A DNA stretch of 26,145 nucleotides from a virus. Lineage: Duplodnaviria; Caudoviricetes. Below the pieces are notes generated by a model. That model was not told the DNA's origin and made no database searches. It was given only the letters and a program-made list of their open reading frames with translations. The first letter of the stretch is position 1; each line of letters opens with the position of its first letter. Where the stretch lies: positions 1 to 26,145 of IMG/VR virus record IMGVR_UViG_3300046049_000011. One strand, written 5' to 3'. Shown here piece by piece: positions 3,575 through 26,145 of the stretch. The position numbers and the translations under genes were made by a program.

Positions 3575-4294
3575 ATGAGCTCGCGCGAGCACCGGGTCAC
3601 CTGTGCGATCAAGTGGCACTACCTCGAAGGGCAATCGGCGCCGGAGATCCGCGATCGGATGGAGCAGGAAGGGCTGGGCGATTATGCGGTCTCGACGATC
3701 CGGAACTATCTGAACGAGCAGCCCGCCGAGGAAGCGATGGCGATGATCGAACAGGTGCACGCCAACACGCGGCTCCAGATCGCCGAACACGAACAGCGCA
3801 TGGTCGAGCGGGCACGGCAAGCCGAGTTCTCGGCGACCGAGGCTCGCAAGCGCGTGGGCATGGTCCCGCGGACCTCGACCAACGAGGGGGACCTCGCAAC
3901 CAGGGTCGACGACTGGCGCGAGCTCGAGCCCGACGATCCCGAGGCGCCGGAATGGGCGACCGACGCCGACACGATCATCGCGTTTACCGAGGGCCGCCGG
4001 ACGATCGAGCCCGGCGAGCGCTATCCGATCCAGTCCGTGACGGGCGAGCCGATATACCAGCAGGCGGTCGTCGGCCTCGAGCGCGACCAGCCCGACCAGG
4101 AGGCCCGCCAGCAGTTTCGGTACGAACAGTCGACACACCTCCAGAACAAAGGCGAGGTGCTGGGTGTCTATAGCGAGCACGTCGAGATCGACGCAACCGT
4201 CGACGGTGACGTCGACCTCGAGCTCGGGGCTGACGAGAAGGCCCAGCTTGACCAGCTGTTCGGCGGCGACAGTGACGGCGACGAGGAGCCATGA
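3575..4294 (+). CDS. terS: Probable terminase small subunit (N-terminal HTH)
   Basis: HTH-like start (GQSAPEIRDRM...VSTIRNYL), coiled segment, ATGA-coupled to terL. Confidence 0.65.
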   Translation: MSSREHRVTCAIKWHYLEGQSAPEIRDRMEQEGLGDYAVSTIRNYLNEQPAEEAMAMIEQVHANTRLQIAEHEQRMVERARQAEFSATEARKRVGMVPRTSTNEGDLATRVDDWRELEPDDPEAPEWATDADTIIAFTEGRRTIEPGERYPIQSVTGEPIYQQAVVGLERDQPDQEARQQFRYEQSTHLQNKGEVLGVYSEHVEIDATVDGDVDLELGADEKAQLDQLFGGDSDGDEEP

Positions 4295-5829
4295 GTCAAT
4301 CGCTGGACCCGGCCGAACTTGCCGCGAAGGACCCCCTCGCCCACCCGGCGATCGCCTCGATATGCCTCTTCGAGTACTCCTACCCGCCGGGCGAGCACCT
4401 CCAGGAGTTCTACAACGCCCTGTGGAAGGCCGTCGATCCGGATTTTTCCCACGCTGCCAGTCGGATCGCCCGACTCATGCCCCGCGGACATGGCAAAAGC
4501 GAGGCGGCGTGTATCGTCTTTCCGACGTGGCTGATTCTCCGACGTCCGGAAATCCGGATCGCGATCATCTCCAAGACGGCCGATCTCGCCCAGGATCGCA
4601 CCGAGAAGGTCGTCAACGTCGTCGAGCGCTACGCGGGCCAGTTCGATGTCGCGCTTAGAGACGCCAGTGGCACAACCCTCGAGACCGCGGCCAACCGCCA
4701 CAAGGAGGCCACGATCGAGCCGTTCGGAATCGAGTCGCAACTGACTGGCAAGCACTTCGACGTGATCGTCTTCGATGACGTCGCCGATTGGGACAACCAA
4801 CGCACCGAGACACAGCGCCGGAACCTCCGCCAGTACTTCCGCGATTACGTCGACAATCTCGGCGATCCCGACTCGGTGCTCGAGGGGGGAGCCGTGCAGG
4901 CCCTGATCGGCACCCGCAAGCACCCCCAGGACATCTACGCGACAGACGTGCTCGGGTCGGCGACGTGGGACGTCGGCGTCTACGAGGCGATCGATCCCGT
5001 CGACTGGCCGCTGGTTGAGCAGCGCGCCTGGACGATCCGGGGCGACGACGGGCAGCTGCATGACTCGATCGCCGACTTGCCCGAGGACGTCGCGATCGCC
5101 ACGAACGGCGTCATCCCCGACCAGGAGCTCGACGTGTTGTGGCCCGAGCACAAACCCGCCGAGGCGTTGCTGTACGACATCGTCGACGGCGACGACTCGA
5201 CGGCGATCTGGCAACGCGAAAACCAGCAGGATCCCGAGGCACTCTCCGGCGAGGTATTCAGCTCGGAGTGGCTGATCTACAACGACGAGCTGCCCAAGCC
5301 ACCGACGAGCTACGAGTGGTACGCCGGAATGGACCTCGGTCTCGTCGACGATCTCCAAGCGGCTGCCGAGGGCGACTCCGATTACACGGCGCTGGCGGTG
5401 CTCGCCTGGAACGAGCGCGACGCACAGGGCTACGTCCATCGGCTCCGGCGCGAGCGCGGGCTCTCGGTCAAGGCCGCTGCCGACTGGGCGCGACGCCAGC
5501 TTGCTCACTACCGAATCGACGCGATGAGAATCGAGCAGAACGCCAACCGTGGCGTGGCTCAGCGGCTCCGTGACAACTCGGCGCTGCCAGCCGAGGGCGT
5601 GAGCTCGACCGAGAGCAAAGAGGCCCGGATCCACGACCTTTCGGCGCATTTCGAGAGCGGTCAGCTTCAGCTCATCGGCGACGAACGCGCCGAACACTGG
5701 CGCTCGTTCGAACAAGACGAGTGGCTGCTGTTCCCGAACGCGGCCCACGACGATCGTCTTGACGCGATCGAGCTTGCGACGCGCTGTATCGCGGTGAGCG
5801 GGCACAACGTGGGGGTCGCGTTTGGCTGA
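4291..5829 (+). CDS. terL: Terminase large subunit
   Basis: Walker A PRGHGKS, Walker B VIVFDD, IGTR coupling motif, nuclease motifs GMDLG, SDYTA and HDDRLDA. Confidence 0.95.
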   Translation: MSQSLDPAELAAKDPLAHPAIASICLFEYSYPPGEHLQEFYNALWKAVDPDFSHAASRIARLMPRGHGKSEAACIVFPTWLILRRPEIRIAIISKTADLAQDRTEKVVNVVERYAGQFDVALRDASGTTLETAANRHKEATIEPFGIESQLTGKHFDVIVFDDVADWDNQRTETQRRNLRQYFRDYVDNLGDPDSVLEGGAVQALIGTRKHPQDIYATDVLGSATWDVGVYEAIDPVDWPLVEQRAWTIRGDDGQLHDSIADLPEDVAIATNGVIPDQELDVLWPEHKPAEALLYDIVDGDDSTAIWQRENQQDPEALSGEVFSSEWLIYNDELPKPPTSYEWYAGMDLGLVDDLQAAAEGDSDYTALAVLAWNERDAQGYVHRLRRERGLSVKAAADWARRQLAHYRIDAMRIEQNANRGVAQRLRDNSALPAEGVSSTESKEARIHDLSAHFESGQLQLIGDERAEHWRSFEQDEWLLFPNAAHDDRLDAIELATRCIAVSGHNVGVAFG

Positions 5830-5874
5830 CGCCGGCCGTGCTAGTCCTTTACAGTCCGATCGCGACACACCTGG

Positions 5875-6015
5875 CGCGGAGGGAGGCCATGCCGGGGCGT
5901 GGCTGATGATCTCCGCGGAGGGGGCTCTCGGGGCTCATCTCGTATCGTCTCGTCGACTCGACACGCGCTCGTCGCAGGTGTACCATGGCGTTCCCGGTCA
6001 CTCGGGAACGCTTTT
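5875..6015 (+). ncRNA. Putative structured small RNA containing a kink-turn
   Basis: 211-bp gap without a credible ORF; K-turn geometry at 5875-5917; hairpin 5918-5941; terminal 9-bp hairpin 5988-6011 followed by TTTT; promoter-motif variant at 5848-5868. Confidence 0.5.
5988..6015 (+). terminator. Hairpin plus U-tract overlapping the next promoter box
   Basis: GCGTTCCCG/CGGGAACGC perfect stem followed by TTTT. Confidence 0.45.
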
Positions 6016-6040
6016 CGGCGCTGCTCGTCTCCCTCGAGCT

Positions 6041-6313
6041 ATGGCTGAGGACTCTCCCGAGACGCTACACGCTGCACTGACCGAGATCCGTGGCGTCGGC
6101 CCGGCGACCGCCGAAGAGATCGAGCAGGCACTCGCAGAACACGAGCTCAAAGAGGAAAGCGAGACCGGTCAGGACGACTCCGCAGGCGCCGCCGTCGACG
6201 AGGCGCGCGACCAGCTGGGCACGGCGCTCGAGTATTTCGCGAGCGATCGACCGCGCCACGCCGAGCAGCACGTCCAGCGCGCTCACGAAACACTCGACGA
6301 GCTGGAGGGGTAG
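6041..6313 (+). CDS. Small helix-hairpin-helix protein
   Basis: LTEIRGVGPATAEEI HhH motif; start fixed by the promoter motif. Confidence 0.8.
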   Translation: MAEDSPETLHAALTEIRGVGPATAEEIEQALAEHELKEESETGQDDSAGAAVDEARDQLGTALEYFASDRPRHAEQHVQRAHETLDELEG

Positions 6314-6314
6314 C

Positions 6315-6611
6315 ATGGGACTGCTCGACCGCGATCGCGATCGCGACGACGGCCAGGACCAGGCCGTCGACGCCGACACGGCGCCCACGAGCGAGGCCTC
6401 GTCGAGTGGGCTCCTCGAGCAGGCCCGGCGCGTGCTCGCGGTCCCTCGCGACCAGCTCGAGTGTCCGGAGTGTGGCGCCCTCCTCCAGGCAGGCTACGCT
6501 CGCGATCCCCACACGCAAGGTCACTGGCGTGGGACGCCAGCCCACGTCTGCCCGGAGGACGACTGTGACTATGCCCAGCGCCGCCGCGCCAAGGGCGAGG
6601 GCGAGCGCTAG
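6315..6611 (+). CDS. CPxCG-type Zn-finger protein
   Basis: CPECG...CPEDDC; GGAGG upstream of ATG 6315. Confidence 0.75.
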   Translation: MGLLDRDRDRDDGQDQAVDADTAPTSEASSSGLLEQARRVLAVPRDQLECPECGALLQAGYARDPHTQGHWRGTPAHVCPEDDCDYAQRRRAKGEGER

Positions 6612-6643: not shown

Positions 6644-8692
6644 ATGACCAACCGACAACGCGAGCCGTTCGTCGGCGACGACCAGCGCAGTGCGGTCTCG
6701 GAGATGCTCGGTCGTGTCCTTGAGCACGTCGCGCCCGACCGGTTCGTCGCCGGCGGCGCCTCGGCCGACCATGGCTTCCAGCAACGCCCGCGAAACTTCG
6801 AGCGGCTCAAGAAGCACGAGCGGGTTTACGCTGCTGGCGGCCCGATCACCGATTTTATCGACACTCGCGCGATCATGACCTACGGCACGGGCGTCGAGTT
6901 CGAGACTGACGAGCCCGAGCTCACCGACGAGCAGGGCCGCACCGTCGCCGAGTGGCTCACCGAGCAGTTTCCACTGGTCGACCAGGCGATGATCAGTCGC
7001 GGGATCCATACCTACGTGTATGGCGACGCGTGGCCCGAGCTCGTCGAAACGCGTGGCGGTGACGTCTCCCATATTACGCTCGTCCATCCGACGACGGTCG
7101 CACCGGAGTGGGACGCCCACGGCGCGATCGAAGCACTCGAGCAGGTCGTCAAAGACGGCCGGGGGCGGTGGCGTCGGCAGCCCCTCGAGCTCGATCGCCA
7201 CGGGCACTGGTTCTACAAAAACGAGTCGGCGGGACCACTGGGCGATTCGTTGCTCGCGCAGAACTGGCGAGAGATCCAGTGGTATCGCCGCAACCAGGAG
7301 CAACGCGCCAACGCGATCCGGCTGCACGGGAGCCCAAAGTACCACATCCAGGTTGGCTCCGAGAGCCAGTCGATCCCCGACCGGCTGATCCGCCGCGTTC
7401 GCGATCGCTTCCGCTCGAGAAATATCGACGAAAAGACGAGCTGGACGACCGGCGGCCAGATCGAAGTGGACGAGCTCGACGCCCCAGGCTTCCAGGGCAT
7501 GGAGTCGATCACCGAGACGGACGTCACGAAACTCGCGAGTGGCTTCGGCGTGCCATTGGAGTGGACAAACTTCGGCAGCGCTGGCCTCGGCGAAGGCACG
7601 CCCGCCGAGAGCCGGATTCAGAAGTTCGAACGCCAGGCCCGGGGCGAGCAACGCCGGGCCGCAGAGCAGTTCAGGAAGTTTCCCCTGCGGCTGATCGTTG
7701 ACGAGTTTTCGCCGTTCCCGCCAGGCACCCAGTTCGACATTCAGTTCGGCGATCCCGTCACGGATCGCCAGAAGATCGCCCAGTGGCTCGATCCCTTTGC
7801 GGAGCACTACACTCGCGACGAGATCCGCTCGAAGTTGGGCGATCCACCACTCACCGAGGAGCAGCGCCAAGCCGTCGAGGAGCGCGCCGAGCAGGACGCT
7901 GGGCCAGCCGAGGGTGGTGGGCTGTTCGCGAGCGCCGCCGACGCCGGCGACGCGATCGACGCGCCGGACCCCCTTGACGAGGACGCCAAGCGCGCCCACA
8001 CCGACGGCGGCACGGCCGCCCGGGACAACAACTCAAGTTGTGGTTCGCGAAACGGTAGTGGGCGGGTGCTGTTGCACGGCGAGGCGGCCGCCGACGCGCT
8101 GACTCAGCAGGAGCTGGTCTGGCAGGATGTCTATGAGAACGTCCTGTGGCCCGATGAGGCGCCGGAGCGCCAACTCTTCGAATTTGATCCCGAGGACGTC
8201 CCTGACTTTGTCATCAAAAATTTGCGCCAGGCCATCGCTTCGAATGCGGTGTTTGACGAGTTCGAAACGATCGGCGCCGCCGCAGCCGAGCAGCTCGAAG
8301 GCGTTCTCATAAAGTCACTCTCCCAACCACAGGGCTGGTCGATCACGTCGCTCGCCGAGAACATCCAGGAGGCCGTGCCCGAACCGCTCGAGCGCACCGA
8401 CGCCGAGCGAATCGCCCGCACGGAGACCCAGTCACTCGTCAACCAGGCCCGCGAGGAGGGCTACGAGGCACAGTTCGATCTGACCGAGGAACGATTCGAC
8501 TGGGTCGGGCCCGACGATCAGCGAAACTCCGACGTCTGCCCGGCGATCAAGTCACGGGTGCCCGACACCGGGCTTCCGCTGGACGATCTTCGCGAGCTCG
8601 TCCAAGAGACTGCCCGCGAATTTGGCCACGACCCTCGGCGCTGGACTCCGCACATATCATGCAGGCACACATTTACGCGGCAAGTCGCGTAG
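6644..8692 (+). CDS. Portal protein fused to a C-terminal MuF/SPP1 gp7-like head morphogenesis domain
   Basis: Position after terL; portal-like YGDAW.E, G.S.L and FGVP motifs; C-terminal ERIARTE...W....D.R...C...H..CR MuF signature. Confidence 0.85.
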   Translation: MTNRQREPFVGDDQRSAVSEMLGRVLEHVAPDRFVAGGASADHGFQQRPRNFERLKKHERVYAAGGPITDFIDTRAIMTYGTGVEFETDEPELTDEQGRTVAEWLTEQFPLVDQAMISRGIHTYVYGDAWPELVETRGGDVSHITLVHPTTVAPEWDAHGAIEALEQVVKDGRGRWRRQPLELDRHGHWFYKNESAGPLGDSLLAQNWREIQWYRRNQEQRANAIRLHGSPKYHIQVGSESQSIPDRLIRRVRDRFRSRNIDEKTSWTTGGQIEVDELDAPGFQGMESITETDVTKLASGFGVPLEWTNFGSAGLGEGTPAESRIQKFERQARGEQRRAAEQFRKFPLRLIVDEFSPFPPGTQFDIQFGDPVTDRQKIAQWLDPFAEHYTRDEIRSKLGDPPLTEEQRQAVEERAEQDAGPAEGGGLFASAADAGDAIDAPDPLDEDAKRAHTDGGTAARDNNSSCGSRNGSGRVLLHGEAAADALTQQELVWQDVYENVLWPDEAPERQLFEFDPEDVPDFVIKNLRQAIASNAVFDEFETIGAAAAEQLEGVLIKSLSQPQGWSITSLAENIQEAVPEPLERTDAERIARTETQSLVNQAREEGYEAQFDLTEERFDWVGPDDQRNSDVCPAIKSRVPDTGLPLDDLRELVQETAREFGHDPRRWTPHISCRHTFTRQVA

Positions 8693-12267: not shown

Positions 12268-12693
12268 ATGGCATTTCGAACGTACTCGAAGCCTGTTCTC
12301 ACGGAGCCAGCTCGTGCGGGGGCTGATATCGACTCCTACGACGCGGAGAACGCGGTCTCCCAAGGACAGGTCGTCAAGCAGGGCAGCAACGAGGACCAGG
12401 TAACGCCGTCCGATACGGACGGCGAGAAGGTCATCGGCGTCGCGCTCTACGACGCCAGCTCGGGTGACATCGTCGACGTCGTCCGCGAGGCCAACGGGGT
12501 CCGGCTAACGTCGGGCTCGGGCTCGATCTCGGCCGACGACGCACTCGCAAGCCATGGCGGGAGCGGCGAGAACGGCGAGGTCGACTCGGCCGCGGCGGGC
12601 GATTACATCCTCGGTACCGCAAAACGGGCCGACGAGGGCAGCAACGACGACGTAATCGCGTCGCTCAACCCCCAGCCAGGGAGTGATCTGTAA
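12268..12693 (+). CDS. Head decoration/capsid cement protein (DUF2190-like)
   Basis: AENAVSQGQVV...VIGVALYDA..GD.V.V pattern; immediately before the capsid gene (TAATG overlap). Confidence 0.8.
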   Translation: MAFRTYSKPVLTEPARAGADIDSYDAENAVSQGQVVKQGSNEDQVTPSDTDGEKVIGVALYDASSGDIVDVVREANGVRLTSGSGSISADDALASHGGSGENGEVDSAAAGDYILGTAKRADEGSNDDVIASLNPQPGSDL

Positions 12694-13991
12694 TGCCGGG
12701 GATCCAGACGCGCAACGACGTCCGCCGGCGACTCAAGCAGTACTGGCGCGATCCCGGTAACCCGCGACTCCGCGGGCTGTTCTTGGCAGCGCTCCCCAAC
12801 TCGGGCGCCGACCCCGAGACCGTCGGCCAGTGCTGGCCGACGCGACCCGACGAGCGTGAGCGCCATCTCCAGACCGTCTACGGGCAGTACGACGGGCAGC
12901 CCCATCGAGTGATGACCGCACCCGTCAAACAGGAGTTCTCGCCGGGTTGGCTCTTCGATGATTTCGAGAGCCGCCCCGAGAGTGGCGTTGCCCGGTCGCT
13001 CGCTCGCGATCACTTCACGCAGGACGAGGACGTCCACAAGTTCCTCTCGGGTGAGGAGACGATGGATCTCGATCGCTACATCAAACGGGCACTGCTCCAA
13101 GACTCGCCGACGCACCTGGATACGCTCTTCCGCAAGGAGCTTGAGGACACGTTCGTCATGGGCGCGCAGCCGCGCAAGATCTTCCGCGACGCGGCCAACG
13201 TCCGGCGGGTCAACCGCGAGAAGGGCGATTTCCCGCGGGAGAGCGACGAGCCGTACGCGCCGATCATCGGCCACAACGACGAGATCCGGACGGGCCAGCA
13301 GGGATTCGACACGGTCAGTTTCGACTGTGACAAGATCGCCACTGGCTTCGAGATCAGCGACTCGCTGATGAACCAGTCCGAGCCGGACGCGTTCGCGAGT
13401 CTCGCCGAGGGGGTGGGCGCGGCCGTCGAGAACACCCTCAACCGCAAGGCGCTCGTCACGGCAATCGATAACGCCGACTCGAACAACGACGTCGACGCCG
13501 ACATCGGCGGCTCGAACGAACAGTCGGCCGTCCAGGCGCTGAACGAGGCGGTCACGAACGTCGACATCAACGACTACGGCGAGCCCGACTCGGTGGTCGT
13601 CCATCCCGAGTTCGAGCAGGCGATTTTCGACGACACCAACGTGGTGTACGCCAATCGCTCGGGCGAGACCGAGCCCGTCCAGGATCGCGAGATGGGCTCG
13701 ATCATGGGCCTCGGGCGCTGGAAAGGGTCGGACAGCACGTACAACAATGCCGGCAGCGCCTCGTACGGCAAACAGCTCTCGACGTCGAACACGTGGGGAT
13801 ACGATGGCGACACGGAGATCGGCGCCGTGGCGTTCCCCAGCCGGATGTTCAACGTCGTGATTTGGGACGATTTCGACATGGAGACCAAATCCTACGAAGA
13901 TCCGATCCGGGATCTCGAAGGGCAAAACGTCCGCACGTGGATGGACGCCGTCTACGGCCAGCAGGGAGCCGGAGCAGTCATCAAACACTAA
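12693..13991 (+). CDS. Major capsid protein (HK97 fold) with N-terminal extension
   Basis: Synteny and size; K...FEISDSLM, VVVHP, G.IMGL and terminal A..I motifs. Confidence 0.88.
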   Translation: MPGIQTRNDVRRRLKQYWRDPGNPRLRGLFLAALPNSGADPETVGQCWPTRPDERERHLQTVYGQYDGQPHRVMTAPVKQEFSPGWLFDDFESRPESGVARSLARDHFTQDEDVHKFLSGEETMDLDRYIKRALLQDSPTHLDTLFRKELEDTFVMGAQPRKIFRDAANVRRVNREKGDFPRESDEPYAPIIGHNDEIRTGQQGFDTVSFDCDKIATGFEISDSLMNQSEPDAFASLAEGVGAAVENTLNRKALVTAIDNADSNNDVDADIGGSNEQSAVQALNEAVTNVDINDYGEPDSVVVHPEFEQAIFDDTNVVYANRSGETEPVQDREMGSIMGLGRWKGSDSTYNNAGSASYGKQLSTSNTWGYDGDTEIGAVAFPSRMFNVVIWDDFDMETKSYEDPIRDLEGQNVRTWMDAVYGQQGAGAVIKH

Positions 13992-14428: not shown

Positions 14429-14686
14429 ATGATCCACGACCACGCCAACGAGGGCAAGGTCGTCGACGCCGAGTGGCACGCATTCCGCCAGATGGCTCGC
14501 GAGACTGCCATGTCACCGGAGGAGTTCGACGATCGTGATCGGACACGGTACAACCTCGACGATGACGATCCGGTCGCGCCGGCGCGGATCACCGGCGCGA
14601 ACAACCCCGAAACCTACGAGGGCGACGGCGAGGGCGATCTCGCGCCGCTGCCCGACTACGACTCGGGGGACGCGCCGTACCGTTAG
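14429..14686 (+). CDS. Small acidic hypothetical protein
   Basis: Promoter motif at 14390; halophilic composition. Confidence 0.7.
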   Translation: MIHDHANEGKVVDAEWHAFRQMARETAMSPEEFDDRDRTRYNLDDDDPVAPARITGANNPETYEGDGEGDLAPLPDYDSGDAPYR

Positions 14687-14745: not shown

Positions 14746-14934
14746 ATGCCAACGACACTGTTCCCGTCGATCCTGCCCGATCGCGACGCCGACGACATCC
14801 ACACGCTCGAGAGTGCGTTCGGCGATGGCTGTCCGTTCTGCGACGAGTACACGGGCGAGCACGGCCGCCAGCACGCTCGCAACGCTCACCCCGACCAGTA
14901 CGAGGAGCTCGCGGACCGACACGAGGAGGCCTGA
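14746..14934 (+). CDS. Small C2H2-like Zn-finger protein
   Basis: CPFC...HARNAHP; promoter motif at -30/-15. Confidence 0.75.
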   Translation: MPTTLFPSILPDRDADDIHTLESAFGDGCPFCDEYTGEHGRQHARNAHPDQYEELADRHEEA

Positions 14935-14937
14935 GCG

Positions 14938-15853: not shown

Positions 15854-16135
15854 ATGCTTGGCTACTTACTCGTCGCCGGCGTCGTCGGGCTCGCCCTTGG
15901 GGCGGTGCTCGTCGCGACCGGCCAGTGGCTTGCCGATCGGCGCCGCGTCGCCAGGGATCCGTTCGGTGCACCTGCCCATCCGACCCACGTCTCAATCGCA
16001 TGCACCGCATGTCACGATACCTTTCCCGATCGCCAGTCTGCCGAGGAGCATCTCGCCGAGGAGCACGGCATGGTCCTCGAGGGCGATGAGGCCGACGACG
16101 TCCTCGTCGAGGCCGAGGTCGAGGGGGGAAACTGA
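15854..16135 (+). CDS. Membrane-anchored C2H2 Zn-finger protein
   Basis: N-terminal TM followed by RRR, then CTAC...F.......H....H. Confidence 0.75.
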   Translation: MLGYLLVAGVVGLALGAVLVATGQWLADRRRVARDPFGAPAHPTHVSIACTACHDTFPDRQSAEEHLAEEHGMVLEGDEADDVLVEAEVEGGN

Positions 16136-24042: not shown

Positions 24043-25131
24043 ATGACTCGTAATCCTGTCGGCGATCGCGAGGACTTTTCGGCGACGTACTGGAGTGCGA
24101 TCCTCAATGCACACGCGAAAGAGGCCGTCGTCTCGGGCTGTACGCCGTCAAAAGGCTCGGGCGATTGGGACGTCGACATCGCGAGCGGCGAGGTCGTCGT
24201 CGGGGGCACGCAGGTGTCGGTGAGCGCGGATACGGTGACCCTGTCACCAAGCGACAGCGACGATCGCGTCGATCTCGTCCACGTTGATAGTTCGGGGACA
24301 GTGAGCTCGACGGAAGGCACGGCCGCGACGAACCCGACGGCGCCAGACATTCCAAGCGGCGAGGTCCTCCTGGCGACCGTGCTCGTCGAGGGCGGCGCGT
24401 CGGATCTCTCGAGTGCGGGCTCGTCGATCAACGACTACCGGACGATCTACGTCGGCGGACGAGCAGCCATGACGATCTCGTCGGCCACAACCACCGCCGA
24501 CGAGGAGGTCATCGGCGTCGACTCATCTACGGGAGCAATCACCGTCACGCTCGCCTCGGCAGACGCTTATCTCGGCAAGGAGCTCGTCGTCTTTGACGCC
24601 GGCGACAACGCCTCGAGCAACACCATCACGATCGATACCGAGGGCTCGGAGACGATCGACCCCGGGGGCGCGTCGTCAAAAACCATCACTGTCGACGGCA
24701 CATTCGTTCGGCTCTACAGCGACGGTTCAAACTGGTTCGCCGAGGGGCGTGCGATCGACGCCGAGACGATAAGTACAGATACCCTAACAATCGAAGAACC
24801 AAGCGGGCCGACAGTTGTCGGGACATTTGGAGCGCAGGGGGAATTAATCGCGTCTGATGTCTTCACTTTGGCAGATGACGAGGTGATTGTGTTAGCAGAG
24901 GGGGCGAAATCAGCCAATCTGATCCTGATTAAAGACGAGAGTGGTAACGCAGAGGCGTTCATTCGGACTGTTGGCTCAGATATAACCGTGGAGTCGACCC
25001 AAGGGACAACTGATTTTGTCTCTGGAGATGTCGATGGGAAAAATTCAATCATTTACGACGCGGGGGACATTCGTCTTAAAAACCGGACTGGGTCCAGCAA
25101 CAACTATTCTGTGACGATACTCGCTAATTAG
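24043..25131 (+). CDS. Tail fibre/receptor-binding protein 2
   Basis: Same N-terminal anchor (SGC..SKG.GD.D.D..SG.V...RVDL...P.AP.IP..EVLL); middle domain ITVTL...NTITIDT.GSETID...LYSDGSNW; lower-GC tip. Confidence 0.8.
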   Translation: MTRNPVGDREDFSATYWSAILNAHAKEAVVSGCTPSKGSGDWDVDIASGEVVVGGTQVSVSADTVTLSPSDSDDRVDLVHVDSSGTVSSTEGTAATNPTAPDIPSGEVLLATVLVEGGASDLSSAGSSINDYRTIYVGGRAAMTISSATTTADEEVIGVDSSTGAITVTLASADAYLGKELVVFDAGDNASSNTITIDTEGSETIDPGGASSKTITVDGTFVRLYSDGSNWFAEGRAIDAETISTDTLTIEEPSGPTVVGTFGAQGELIASDVFTLADDEVIVLAEGAKSANLILIKDESGNAEAFIRTVGSDITVESTQGTTDFVSGDVDGKNSIIYDAGDIRLKNRTGSSNNYSVTILAN

Positions 25132-25192: not shown

Positions 25193-25936
25193 CTATCGCG
25201 AGTGAGTCGCGTTCAGCGCGCGGCGCGTTCGCGTCCCCGACCGGCGGACGTACCGATGGGCCGTCGAGAGATCAGCCCAGCCCAGGAGTGCTTGGAGGGC
25301 AAGCGCGTCGAGGCCGCGGCTGGCGTGATACGACGCGGCCGTTGCCCGGAGACAGTGCGGGTAGATCGCGTCGGCGTCAAGACCGTCGACACGCTCGGCG
25401 GCGCGATCGAGCCGACGGTGGACCGCTGAGTGCGAGCCCTGGTACTGGTCGAAGCGATCGAAATAGTGTTCCAGGGCGAGCTCGACGCGTGGGTCAAAGT
25501 CAAAGGGGATCTCGCGGGCGGCGGCCTCGGTCTTGGATTGCCAGCGCTGCTTGAGGGCGGTCTCGAGATCGAGGGCCTCGTCCTCGCCGGAATGGGCGAC
25601 CTGCTGTTTGGCGAGTTGGGTGCAGTGCCCACAGACCCCACCGTTGCGGCCGTTCGTGCAGGGGTCGTAGCGTGGAATCTCGAGCATCCGATCGCGCCAG
25701 TTGATCCAGCTCTCGTCGAGATGCGTAAGCTCGCCGACGCGGAGCCCGAGTCGCCCCGTCAGCAGGACGATCGTCCGCGTCTCCAACTGGTAGTAGTCAT
25801 CGTCAAGTCGGTAACAGGCCTCGAGGAGCCGCTGAAACTCCCGATCGTCCAGTGCGTCGTCCTTGCTGTGACGAGGAGACTGTCGGTTGGAGTGGCTGCC
25901 GATACGCCTATCCGTACCGCTGTGTGAGTTCGACAT
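25193..25936 (-). CDS. Short tyrosine recombinase/integrase (catalytic domain with Cys-rich insertion)
   Basis: GLRVGEL (R), SKT (K), HCLR, LGW and RY catalytic residues; C-x7-C-x2-C insertion. Start placed at ATG 25936 next to the structured leader. Confidence 0.9.
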   Translation of the reverse strand: MSNSHSGTDRRIGSHSNRQSPRHSKDDALDDREFQRLLEACYRLDDDYYQLETRTIVLLTGRLGLRVGELTHLDESWINWRDRMLEIPRYDPCTNGRNGGVCGHCTQLAKQQVAHSGEDEALDLETALKQRWQSKTEAAAREIPFDFDPRVELALEHYFDRFDQYQGSHSAVHRRLDRAAERVDGLDADAIYPHCLRATAASYHASRGLDALALQALLGWADLSTAHRYVRRSGTRTRRALNATHSR

Positions 25937-26002
25937 GCTTCTGGTCCACCAGAAGCGCGGTCCGCTGTCCAAGCAGCGGGCCTTTCGTGGCCGATGACCG
26001 CG
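25937..26002 (-). promoter_or_regulatory. Structured 5' leader of the recombinase gene
   Basis: Stems 25937-25944/25949-25956, 25963-25967/25974-25978 and 25956-25962/25996-26002. Confidence 0.65.
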
Positions 26003-26145
26003 TTCTGGATGAGTATTCTTGCACAATCCGACTAGTTAAAACCACTGATAATACTCGGGTTGGAGCCAGTGAGAAGCGACCGCCACTCACGTGCTGGCCC
26101 AAGACGGCCACGGTGACAGTGCCGTCAGCACGTGTGAGCCTCCAC

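Follow-up and report, generated by a model that had tools for sequence, protein, structure and literature searches.

Kink-turns (K-turns) of the Haloarcula marismortui Kt-7 class are the closest described counterparts of the element reported here. In the available parts of the cited papers, the Kt-7 set is given as G at -1n and 3n together with C:G at 4b:4n, box C/D K-turns are assigned U:U at 3b:3n and G:C at 4b:4n (PMC5689011), and G at 3n is described as allowing a K-turn to fold in ions (PMC4382518, PMC8191799). Binding of Kt-7 by the Archaeoglobus L7Ae protein is placed at ~10 pM in the accessible portion of PMC3884654. K-turns and their use in control by L7Ae are already known, archaeal mRNAs being regulated in this way according to the part of PMC5539422 that was available, and so are tRNA, antisense and hammerhead RNAs in haloviruses. 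The excerpts at hand describe a hammerhead RNA in the haloarchaeal tailed viruses HF1/HF2 (PMC3088659) and a tRNA-Thr and antisense RNAs in HFTV1 (PMC12542753; bioRxiv 10.64898/2026.09.13.751334), where the tRNA is a non-coding cassette expressed in the head-gene region (bioRxiv 10.64898/2026.09.13.751334). The intron-bearing tRNA at 6434-6552 of the HFTV1 locus (L127) is absent from the GenBank annotation, and available parts of the same two sources already report it.

[quoted passage not shown] No publication describing a K-turn RNA from an archaeal virus was found, in a search that left subscription journals largely outside its reach.

The window, meaning the whole stretch of DNA analysed, is the complete record IMGVR_UViG_3300046049_000011 (26,145 bases, ~33% of a viral genome). 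It encodes terL (4291-5829), a portal-gpF fusion (6644-8692), the capsid protein (12693-13991) and tail genes. Portal and capsid are 29-33% identical to their counterparts in HFTV1 (portal 29%, capsid 31%), HRTV-4, HRTV-29 and BLv36, and the records of HFTV1, HRTV-4 and HRTV-29 are assigned to the family Haloferuviridae. Of the relatives found, the nearest with shared synteny is a provirus in genome G069 (identities: terL 57%, HhH 43%, portal 45%, capsid 55%), of which two copies lie 37,080 bases apart at ~1,305,000-1,362,000 of G069:C1 (loci L093-L096); the second copy has frame breaks in the portal gene and two tail-region genes. The element lies in the 211-base, gene-free gap between terL and the next gene, which encodes a small helix-hairpin-helix (HhH) protein. 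The features are as follows, all on the + strand.

4291..5829, +, terminase large subunit gene (terL); stop TGA at 5827-5829; Pfam Terminase_6C E 6.8e-9, PHROG 38 E 2.7e-70
5848..5868, +, putative weak late-promoter variant; T-box 5848-5853 (TTTACA), hexamer 5863-5868 (CGACAC); predicted start 5877/5878
5867..5873, +, 5' strand of a closing helix, acceptor-stem-like; perfect inverted repeat with 5975-5981; overlaps the promoter hexamer
5875..5917, +, standard K-turn hairpin, Kt-7 type, from sequence and secondary structure (motif scan, folding, shuffles)
5914..5941, +, shorter tandem paralogue of the 5875-5913 unit; alignment score reached in 0/5,000 shuffles, or 3/5,000 without the shared CGCG
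5959..5974, +, 4-bp hairpin with an 8-nt loop in the T-arm position, stacked on the closing helix; pair probability ~0.43; no T-loop sequence
5975..5985, +, 3' strand of the closing helix (5975-5981), then ACCA (5982-5985), from sequence
5988..6015, +, 9-bp hairpin (5988-6011) and U-tract (TTTT, 6012-6015); -18.6 kcal/mol, z -5.67, 0/200 shuffles as stable
6012..6031, +, consensus late promoter of the HhH gene; 21.4 bits (20.7 leave-one-out); ATG 15 nt after the hexamer start
6041..6313, +, HhH protein gene, 90 aa; weak HHH_8 match, E 0.0045; outside the RNA

The reading favoured here, at a probability of roughly 0.36, is that the gap encodes a stand-alone late RNA of ~140 nt (~5876-6015) that would be held in its kinked form and protected by host L7Ae and would probably act as an L7Ae decoy. 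The element is small and was found in one instance; the motif is real, its existence as an RNA unproven.

The kink-turn hairpin and its class

The elements that a preliminary description had located in the gap are all present at the positions it gave, including the hairpin at 5918-5941, the hairpin at 5988-6011 with its TTTT, TTTACA at 5848 and CGACAC at 5863. Its central claim, a textbook K-turn at 5875-5917, stands, since the signature is complete. Seven Watson-Crick pairs between 5875-5881 and 5911-5917 form the NC helix, and eight pairs between 5885-5892 and 5897-5904, closed by a CGGG loop, form the C helix. The non-bulged strand contributes G5882 (3n), G5883 (2n) and A5884 (1n), and the three-nucleotide bulge G5905-A5906-U5907 is followed by G5908 (1b), A5909 (2b) and U5910 (3b), so that the sequence supplies every element of a standard K-turn: C helix, 3-nt bulge, the tandem G1b.A1n and A2b.G2n pairs, and NC helix. 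The hairpin has a folding energy of -26.7 kcal/mol (z -3.65), and none of 200 shuffles was as stable; its reverse strand folds at -18.0 kcal/mol (z -2.40), the + strand being 8.7 kcal/mol more stable.

A motif scan of the window returned 5875-5917 as the sole + strand match with both helices of at least 5 bp. Shuffling the window produced one comparable motif in 60 trials and two in another set of 150, and shuffling the gap produced none in 20,000; this apparent rarity is inflated, because the motif was selected from a very large scan. Four of the seven NC pairs moreover come free, because both tandem units begin with the palindrome CGCG; hairpin 2 (5918-5941), which lies within the paralogue, has no G.A pairs. 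With these four duplication-derived pairs discounted, the motif was matched in 7/20,000 gap shuffles. Among 34 haloarchaeal virus and provirus loci (431,543 bases), a single motif obeyed the Kt-7 rules, with helices of 5 and 3 bp, and no comparable K-turn was found in HFTV1, HRTV-4, HRTV-29 or BLv36.

These counts bear on a neutral or merely structural reading, in which the gap holds a relic cassette and the terL 3' UTR in a hypervariable slot, the K-turn is incidental to a tandemly duplicated hairpin, and function is confined to the last hairpin and U-tract, which act as terminator and promoter. The clear tandem duplication that supplies four of the seven NC pairs favours it, as do the 17 occurrences of the discounted motif (C helix at least 8, NC helix at least 3 pairs) in 150 shuffled windows and the random-like middle of the ~140-nt region (z +0.68). 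The region as a whole is not unusually stable (z -1.37 to -1.81, and -1.43 in a separate calculation). Against the neutral reading, the discounted motif is still rare in shuffles of the gap, and it carried the three positions of the folding rules only twice in those 150 windows.

The hairpin has all the rule positions for ion-induced folding, G5882 (3n), G5885 (-1n) and C5911:G5881 (4b:4n). At 3b:3n it has U:G, which is not a Watson-Crick pair, at -1b:-1n again U:G, that is U instead of C at -1b, and at L3 a U. By its sequence, therefore, 5875-5917 obeys rules of the Kt-7 type and not those of box C/D, and a kinked fold in ions as well as L7Ae binding are predicted for it. The letters UGAUGA had been called box C-like; that reading fails, since it is the second GA of the six letters that supplies 1b and 2b, which shifts UGAUGA by one GA from the register of a box C, and the only CUGA in the gap, at 5903, overlaps UGAUGA itself. 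A box C/D or antisense guide was likewise rejected. The longest perfect antisense match to the 16S, 23S and 28 tRNAs of G069 was 9 nt, and 482 of 500 shuffles reached at least 9.

Other RNA classes fit no better. Archaeal H/ACA sRNAs combine a pseudouridylation pocket, placed beneath the K-turn, with an ACA box at the 3' end; here the NC helix is continuous, with no pocket, and ACC rather than ACA follows the closing helix. A hammerhead ribozyme was rejected too, CUGAUGA being present at 5903-5909 in a gap that has no GAAA and has G at the cleavage-site position. Judged by the accessible part of PMC12045711, a TIGR array is also ruled out, with no dual-spacer array among the repeats and no Nop match in the ~33%-complete record. 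Rfam returned 0 matches at E<=10 for 5600-6300 and none at the gathering threshold across the window. L7Ae genes are present in all three haloarchaeal genomes checked, and none was found in the ~33%-complete virus record.

Transcription signals and coding potential of the gap

Late genes of this virus share a motif composed of a T-box, ~9 nt and a CGTCAC-like hexamer, which precedes most of them and recurs in the G069 provirus; the corresponding pattern has 13 sites in the window and 7 in each provirus copy. Sites lie at 6012, 6615, 8695, 10707, 12236, 14391, 14717, 15825, 16706, 18008, ~20274 and 24014. In 7 of 10 training sites the first ATG follows the hexamer start by 14-15 nt, a spacing that implies leaderless starts. 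The motif also suggests that the true gene starts may lie near 15854, 18037 and 20303 instead of at the longest-ORF starts, and that small genes may be present at 14429-14685 and 14746-14935.

The variant at 5848/5863 begins 19 nt after the terL stop and places its predicted start at the 5' end of the K-turn hairpin. It scores 10.3 bits, rank 20 of 52,230 positions; the training sites all score higher (12.5-21.9 bits, leave-one-out), as do seven probable chance sites. By my own arithmetic, the chance of a site this good in the 45 nt between stop codon and hairpin is ~0.6%. The proposal of a late-promoter variant with a start at ~5875-5878 remains plausible for 5877/5878, although the site is weak, and promoter activity at 5848-5868 is proposed on the letters of the site. 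In halovirus HF2, promoter activity of intergenic repeats is reported for a different motif in the part of PMC8707807 that was available.

At the other end of the gap, the hairpin and U-tract at 5988-6015 are likely to form the 3' end of the RNA and would serve in termination. Their description as terminator-like needs one correction: TTTT 6012-6015 doubles as the T-box of the promoter of the 6041 gene, and the same motif precedes the G069 orthologue. Since the HhH gene has this separate promoter, the element is not its leader, and the gene itself likely has a leaderless start. Downstream of it, 6315-6611 holds a 98-aa ORF with two CxxC-like motifs, in whose start codon G replaces A in one low-depth contig of run X1; none of the contigs of this DNA run spans the gap itself. 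At the end of the record, a 277-aa ORF on the - strand (25193-26026) opposes the late genes and may encode a recombinase.

The gap is non-coding. The first ATG opens five codons, as originally remarked; that remark overlooked a second ATG, at 5906, which opens a 45-codon extension in a frame that is open from 5822 to 6313 and runs into the HhH gene. A translated ORF across the gap would have spoken against a non-coding RNA, but the coding score of the extension, -0.41 bits per codon, is lower than that of each of the 359 true-frame windows, and 4% of its residues are acidic (D+E), compared with 27% in the body of the HhH gene. These results bear on a translational-control reading, in which GGAGG 5878-5882 would serve the ATG at 5889 and its five codons, whose stop overlaps the ATG 5906 in the K-turn bulge, and L7Ae would repress a 135-aa long form of the HhH protein. 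The open frame, the SD-like spacing and the TGATG overlap are indeed present. The coding score and acidic content speak against it, however, as do four homologues (P0004, P0006, the G069 gene and BLv36 ORF48) that all begin at the position equivalent to 6041, and a terminator-like hairpin and a promoter inside the extension; I regard it as very improbable.

The closing helix and alternative folds

The strands ACACCTG (5867) and CAGGTGT (5975), first proposed as closing the domain in a terL read-through transcript, are a perfect inverted repeat; the ACCA that follows had been missed. The helix is exactly 7 bp and is then followed by ACCA, like the acceptor end of a tRNA. In segments of 119-186 nt that end at 5985 or 6015 it forms with a pair probability of 0.97-1.00, against 0.23-0.57 in three longer contexts. 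A helix followed by NCCA occurred in 4 of 20,000 shuffles when the 5' strand had to adjoin the hairpin and in 48 of 20,000 when it could lie anywhere upstream, counts from a test that was post hoc as to ACCA. A start at 5877/5878 leaves the closing helix and three outer NC pairs upstream of the RNA, so that the promoter and acceptor readings are mutually exclusive unless both RNAs are made.

One can therefore imagine a tRNA-acceptor mimic, in which a terL read-through transcript would fold at 5867-5985 into a 119-nt, cloverleaf-like domain composed of the 7-bp stem with ACCA, the K-turn arm, hairpin 2 and the hairpin in the T position, and RNase P would cut at 5866/5867, yielding an L7Ae-bound tRNA-like RNA and a defined terL 3' end. 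The 7-bp stem, discriminator A and CCA, their low frequency in shuffles and the high local pair probability all fit, and this form keeps the full NC helix. In the available part of PMC4919913, RNase P is described as cutting non-tRNA substrates and as needing a T-loop in some form, and no T-arm with a T-loop is present here, nor are a D-loop GG and an anticodon arm; stem and arm together have 11 bp. A canonical tRNA is rejected (ARAGORN 0 genes, Rfam 0 matches, and only implausible calls from ARAGORN with relaxed settings), among 28 haloarchaeal tRNA genes checked, a single one has CCA encoded, the 5867-5985 domain is of ordinary stability (z -1.13, 39/300), and the promoter variant is left unexplained. 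The mimic is unlikely; were it to hold, a tRNA end with a K-turn arm would be the halophile member of an undescribed class engaging both L7Ae and tRNA-processing enzymes.

The stand-alone RNA faces a competing fold, in which 5905-5920 pairs with 5925-5939 and the K-turn is abolished. With a start at 5877/5878, the equilibrium probability of the protein-free K-turn is at most 0.03 and its cost 4.1-4.6 kcal/mol, whereas with a start at 5875/5876 the competing fold is not dominant. The competitor is not special, because shuffled tails act alike, breaking the NC helix in 140 of 300 trials. By arithmetic, L7Ae at 1 uM would yield ~7 kcal/mol, enough to restore the K-turn; a halophilic L7Ae may bind more weakly than the Archaeoglobus protein.

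Refolding of this kind could also be put to use in an L7Ae-sensing attenuator. Without L7Ae, 5881-5891 would pair with 5984-5994, the 5' arm of the terminator, and the genes for the HhH protein, the zinc-finger protein and the portal would be reached by read-through; bound L7Ae would lock the K-turn and let the terminator form. The antiterminator fold does dominate nascent RNAs running from 5876 or 5878 to 6002 (P 0.92 and 0.997), it and the K-turn are mutually exclusive, and regulation of archaeal mRNAs by L7Ae through K-turns is known from what was accessible of PMC5539422. The controls, ranging from 2% to 54%, take much of this away: a 10-of-11 partner was present in 1,042 of 2,000 shuffles, equally strong nascent pairing arose in 14 and 20 of 250, and the duplex test gave 73/3,000 for the 5' strand and 1,610/3,000 for the whole hairpin, in addition to the effect of shuffled tails on the NC helix. 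The HhH and portal genes, furthermore, have consensus promoters of their own, and hairpin-switched termination is not known as an established archaeal mechanism. This attenuator is decidedly unlikely.

Relatives of the locus and known systems

The comparison took in 33 terL loci, redundant copies among them, of which 2 reach no further than the stop codon. In the 31 informative loci, read by eye, the post-terL slot never contains the element, and no more than ~35 nt separate the stop from the following ATG. Most of the 31 carry other head modules, the G069 provirus being the one syntenic case. There the slot holds a promoter-like motif and a 67-aa hydrophobic ORF, followed by the HhH promoter; the ORF (L126, 2940-3143), with its own promoter-like motif, resembles a moron cassette. 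As G069 fills the slot with a different cassette, the slot, which is variable between relatives, accommodates cassettes that can be swapped. A stand-alone cassette agrees with this. A conserved role tied to terL finds no support, and the pattern speaks against a packaging RNA like the pRNA of phi29, as had loosely been suggested at first, which would act with the adjacent terminase and portal. For such a role one can cite the position between terL and portal and the late-type timing. It is extremely improbable, given a slot lacking the element in 31/31 informative loci, syntenic provirus included, the presence of a terminase and of an HK97-type capsid akin to that of HFTV1, and the lack of a comparable K-turn in that virus, HRTV-4, HRTV-29 and BLv36; the packaging system is presumably not a phi29-type motor.

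No homologue of the gap was found in the sources searched, and so no covariation was found. Blastn against phages and plasmids gave only chance pieces of 19-44 nt. Matches at E<=0.05 turned up in 180 of the 401 Halobacteria genomes searched, the best at 1.7e-4; inspection of 15 of 30 fetched loci placed the recurring match, a chance one, inside a conserved protein-coding gene. A pattern scan of viral contigs gave 43 loci and 0 homologues. A single-sequence covariance model reached a best non-self E of 0.11 in 40 sources and E<=0.05 in 2 of 141 genomes, and its three top matches sit in protein-coding ORFs. Scans of viral contigs with the HhH protein, an HhH alignment, the portal and the capsid confirmed no locus, a metagenome scan returned 7 unrelated HhH-bearing proteins, and an ESM Atlas query with the HhH protein gave sub-threshold HhH look-alikes only. 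A portal profile matches 2 of the 401 genomes; G107 was covered in the covariance-model search by its 4-kb locus alone.

During these comparisons, an unannotated intergenic element of ~90 nt was seen in three cultured viruses, HRTV-4 (L128 21826-21915), HRTV-29 (L129 ~25036-25125) and BLv36 (L130 ~31500-31590). Its ends are paired and its inner helices apparently compensating, by eye; L128 and L129 gave no Rfam gathering match, the HRTV-4 copy matching only at E>2.8. It could represent a structured RNA or ribozyme that has yet to be described, and has no visible relation to the element of the window.

The absence of a homologue in any source searched and the variability of the slot also favour the neutral reading, in which the K-turn is incidental. 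Against it stand the promoter variant and the helix with ACCA, as further low-probability features, and a 211-nt gap far longer than that of the terL relatives. I consider it a possible but somewhat unlikely account. Taken in combination, the readings that give the K-turn some functional role are fairly probable.

The stand-alone, L7Ae-held RNA is favoured by the rarity of the K-turn, its Kt-7 rule set, the stability bias towards the + strand, the non-coding gap, the promoter variant at the hairpin, the cassettes of G069 and (a tRNA) HFTV1, and the L7Ae genes in 3/3 genomes. Against it count the lack of a homologue, the weak promoter, the competing fold, a start that omits NC pairs, the pairs made by duplication, a whole RNA no stabler than its shuffles, and selection from a large scan. 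If it is correct, the 5848-5868 variant would fire together with the other late promoters; the 5' hairpin would fold first during transcription and be bound by L7Ae, outweighing the competing fold; the hairpin and U-tract at 5988-6015 would end transcription; and late in infection the RNP would, by titration, draw L7Ae away from the assembly of host ribosomes, RNase P and guide RNPs. Titration is the weakest step, falling somewhat short of an even chance even if the others hold, and one K-turn per RNA would make a poor sponge. The weight of the case is that of a single, unconserved instance from a fragment of an uncultured virus.

Compared with known systems, as far as the available parts of the cited papers describe them, the viral element is closest to the Kt-7 class of H. 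marismortui (PMC4382518, PMC5689011, PMC8191799). It shares the 3-nt bulge, the tandem G.A/A.G pairs, G at -1n and 3n and C:G at 4b:4n; it differs in having U:G and not A:G at 3b:3n, a U:G wobble at -1b:-1n, a pair outside the rules taken from the cited passages, and a position in an intergenic cassette with a competing fold.

With the K-turns of archaeal box C/D (C'/D') sRNAs it has in common a U at L3, the letters UGAUGA and the strand order of a C'/D' motif, non-bulged strand first. It departs from them in its U:G at 3b:3n, its C:G at 4b:4n and the absence of single-stranded guides.

Like the L7Ae-regulated archaeal mRNA leaders, as presented in the accessible part of PMC5539422 (compare PMC6298567), it has a K-turn near the 5' end over an SD-like GGAGG and an AUG; in contrast to them, the nearest real gene downstream is served by a separate promoter, probably starts leaderless, and lies 124 nt and a terminator-like hairpin away. 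With the RNAs of HFTV1 and HF1/HF2, as the available excerpts describe them, it shares the form of a small non-coding cassette in a haloviral genome, and it differs from them in having neither a tRNA fold nor a hammerhead core and in not being antisense to a gene.
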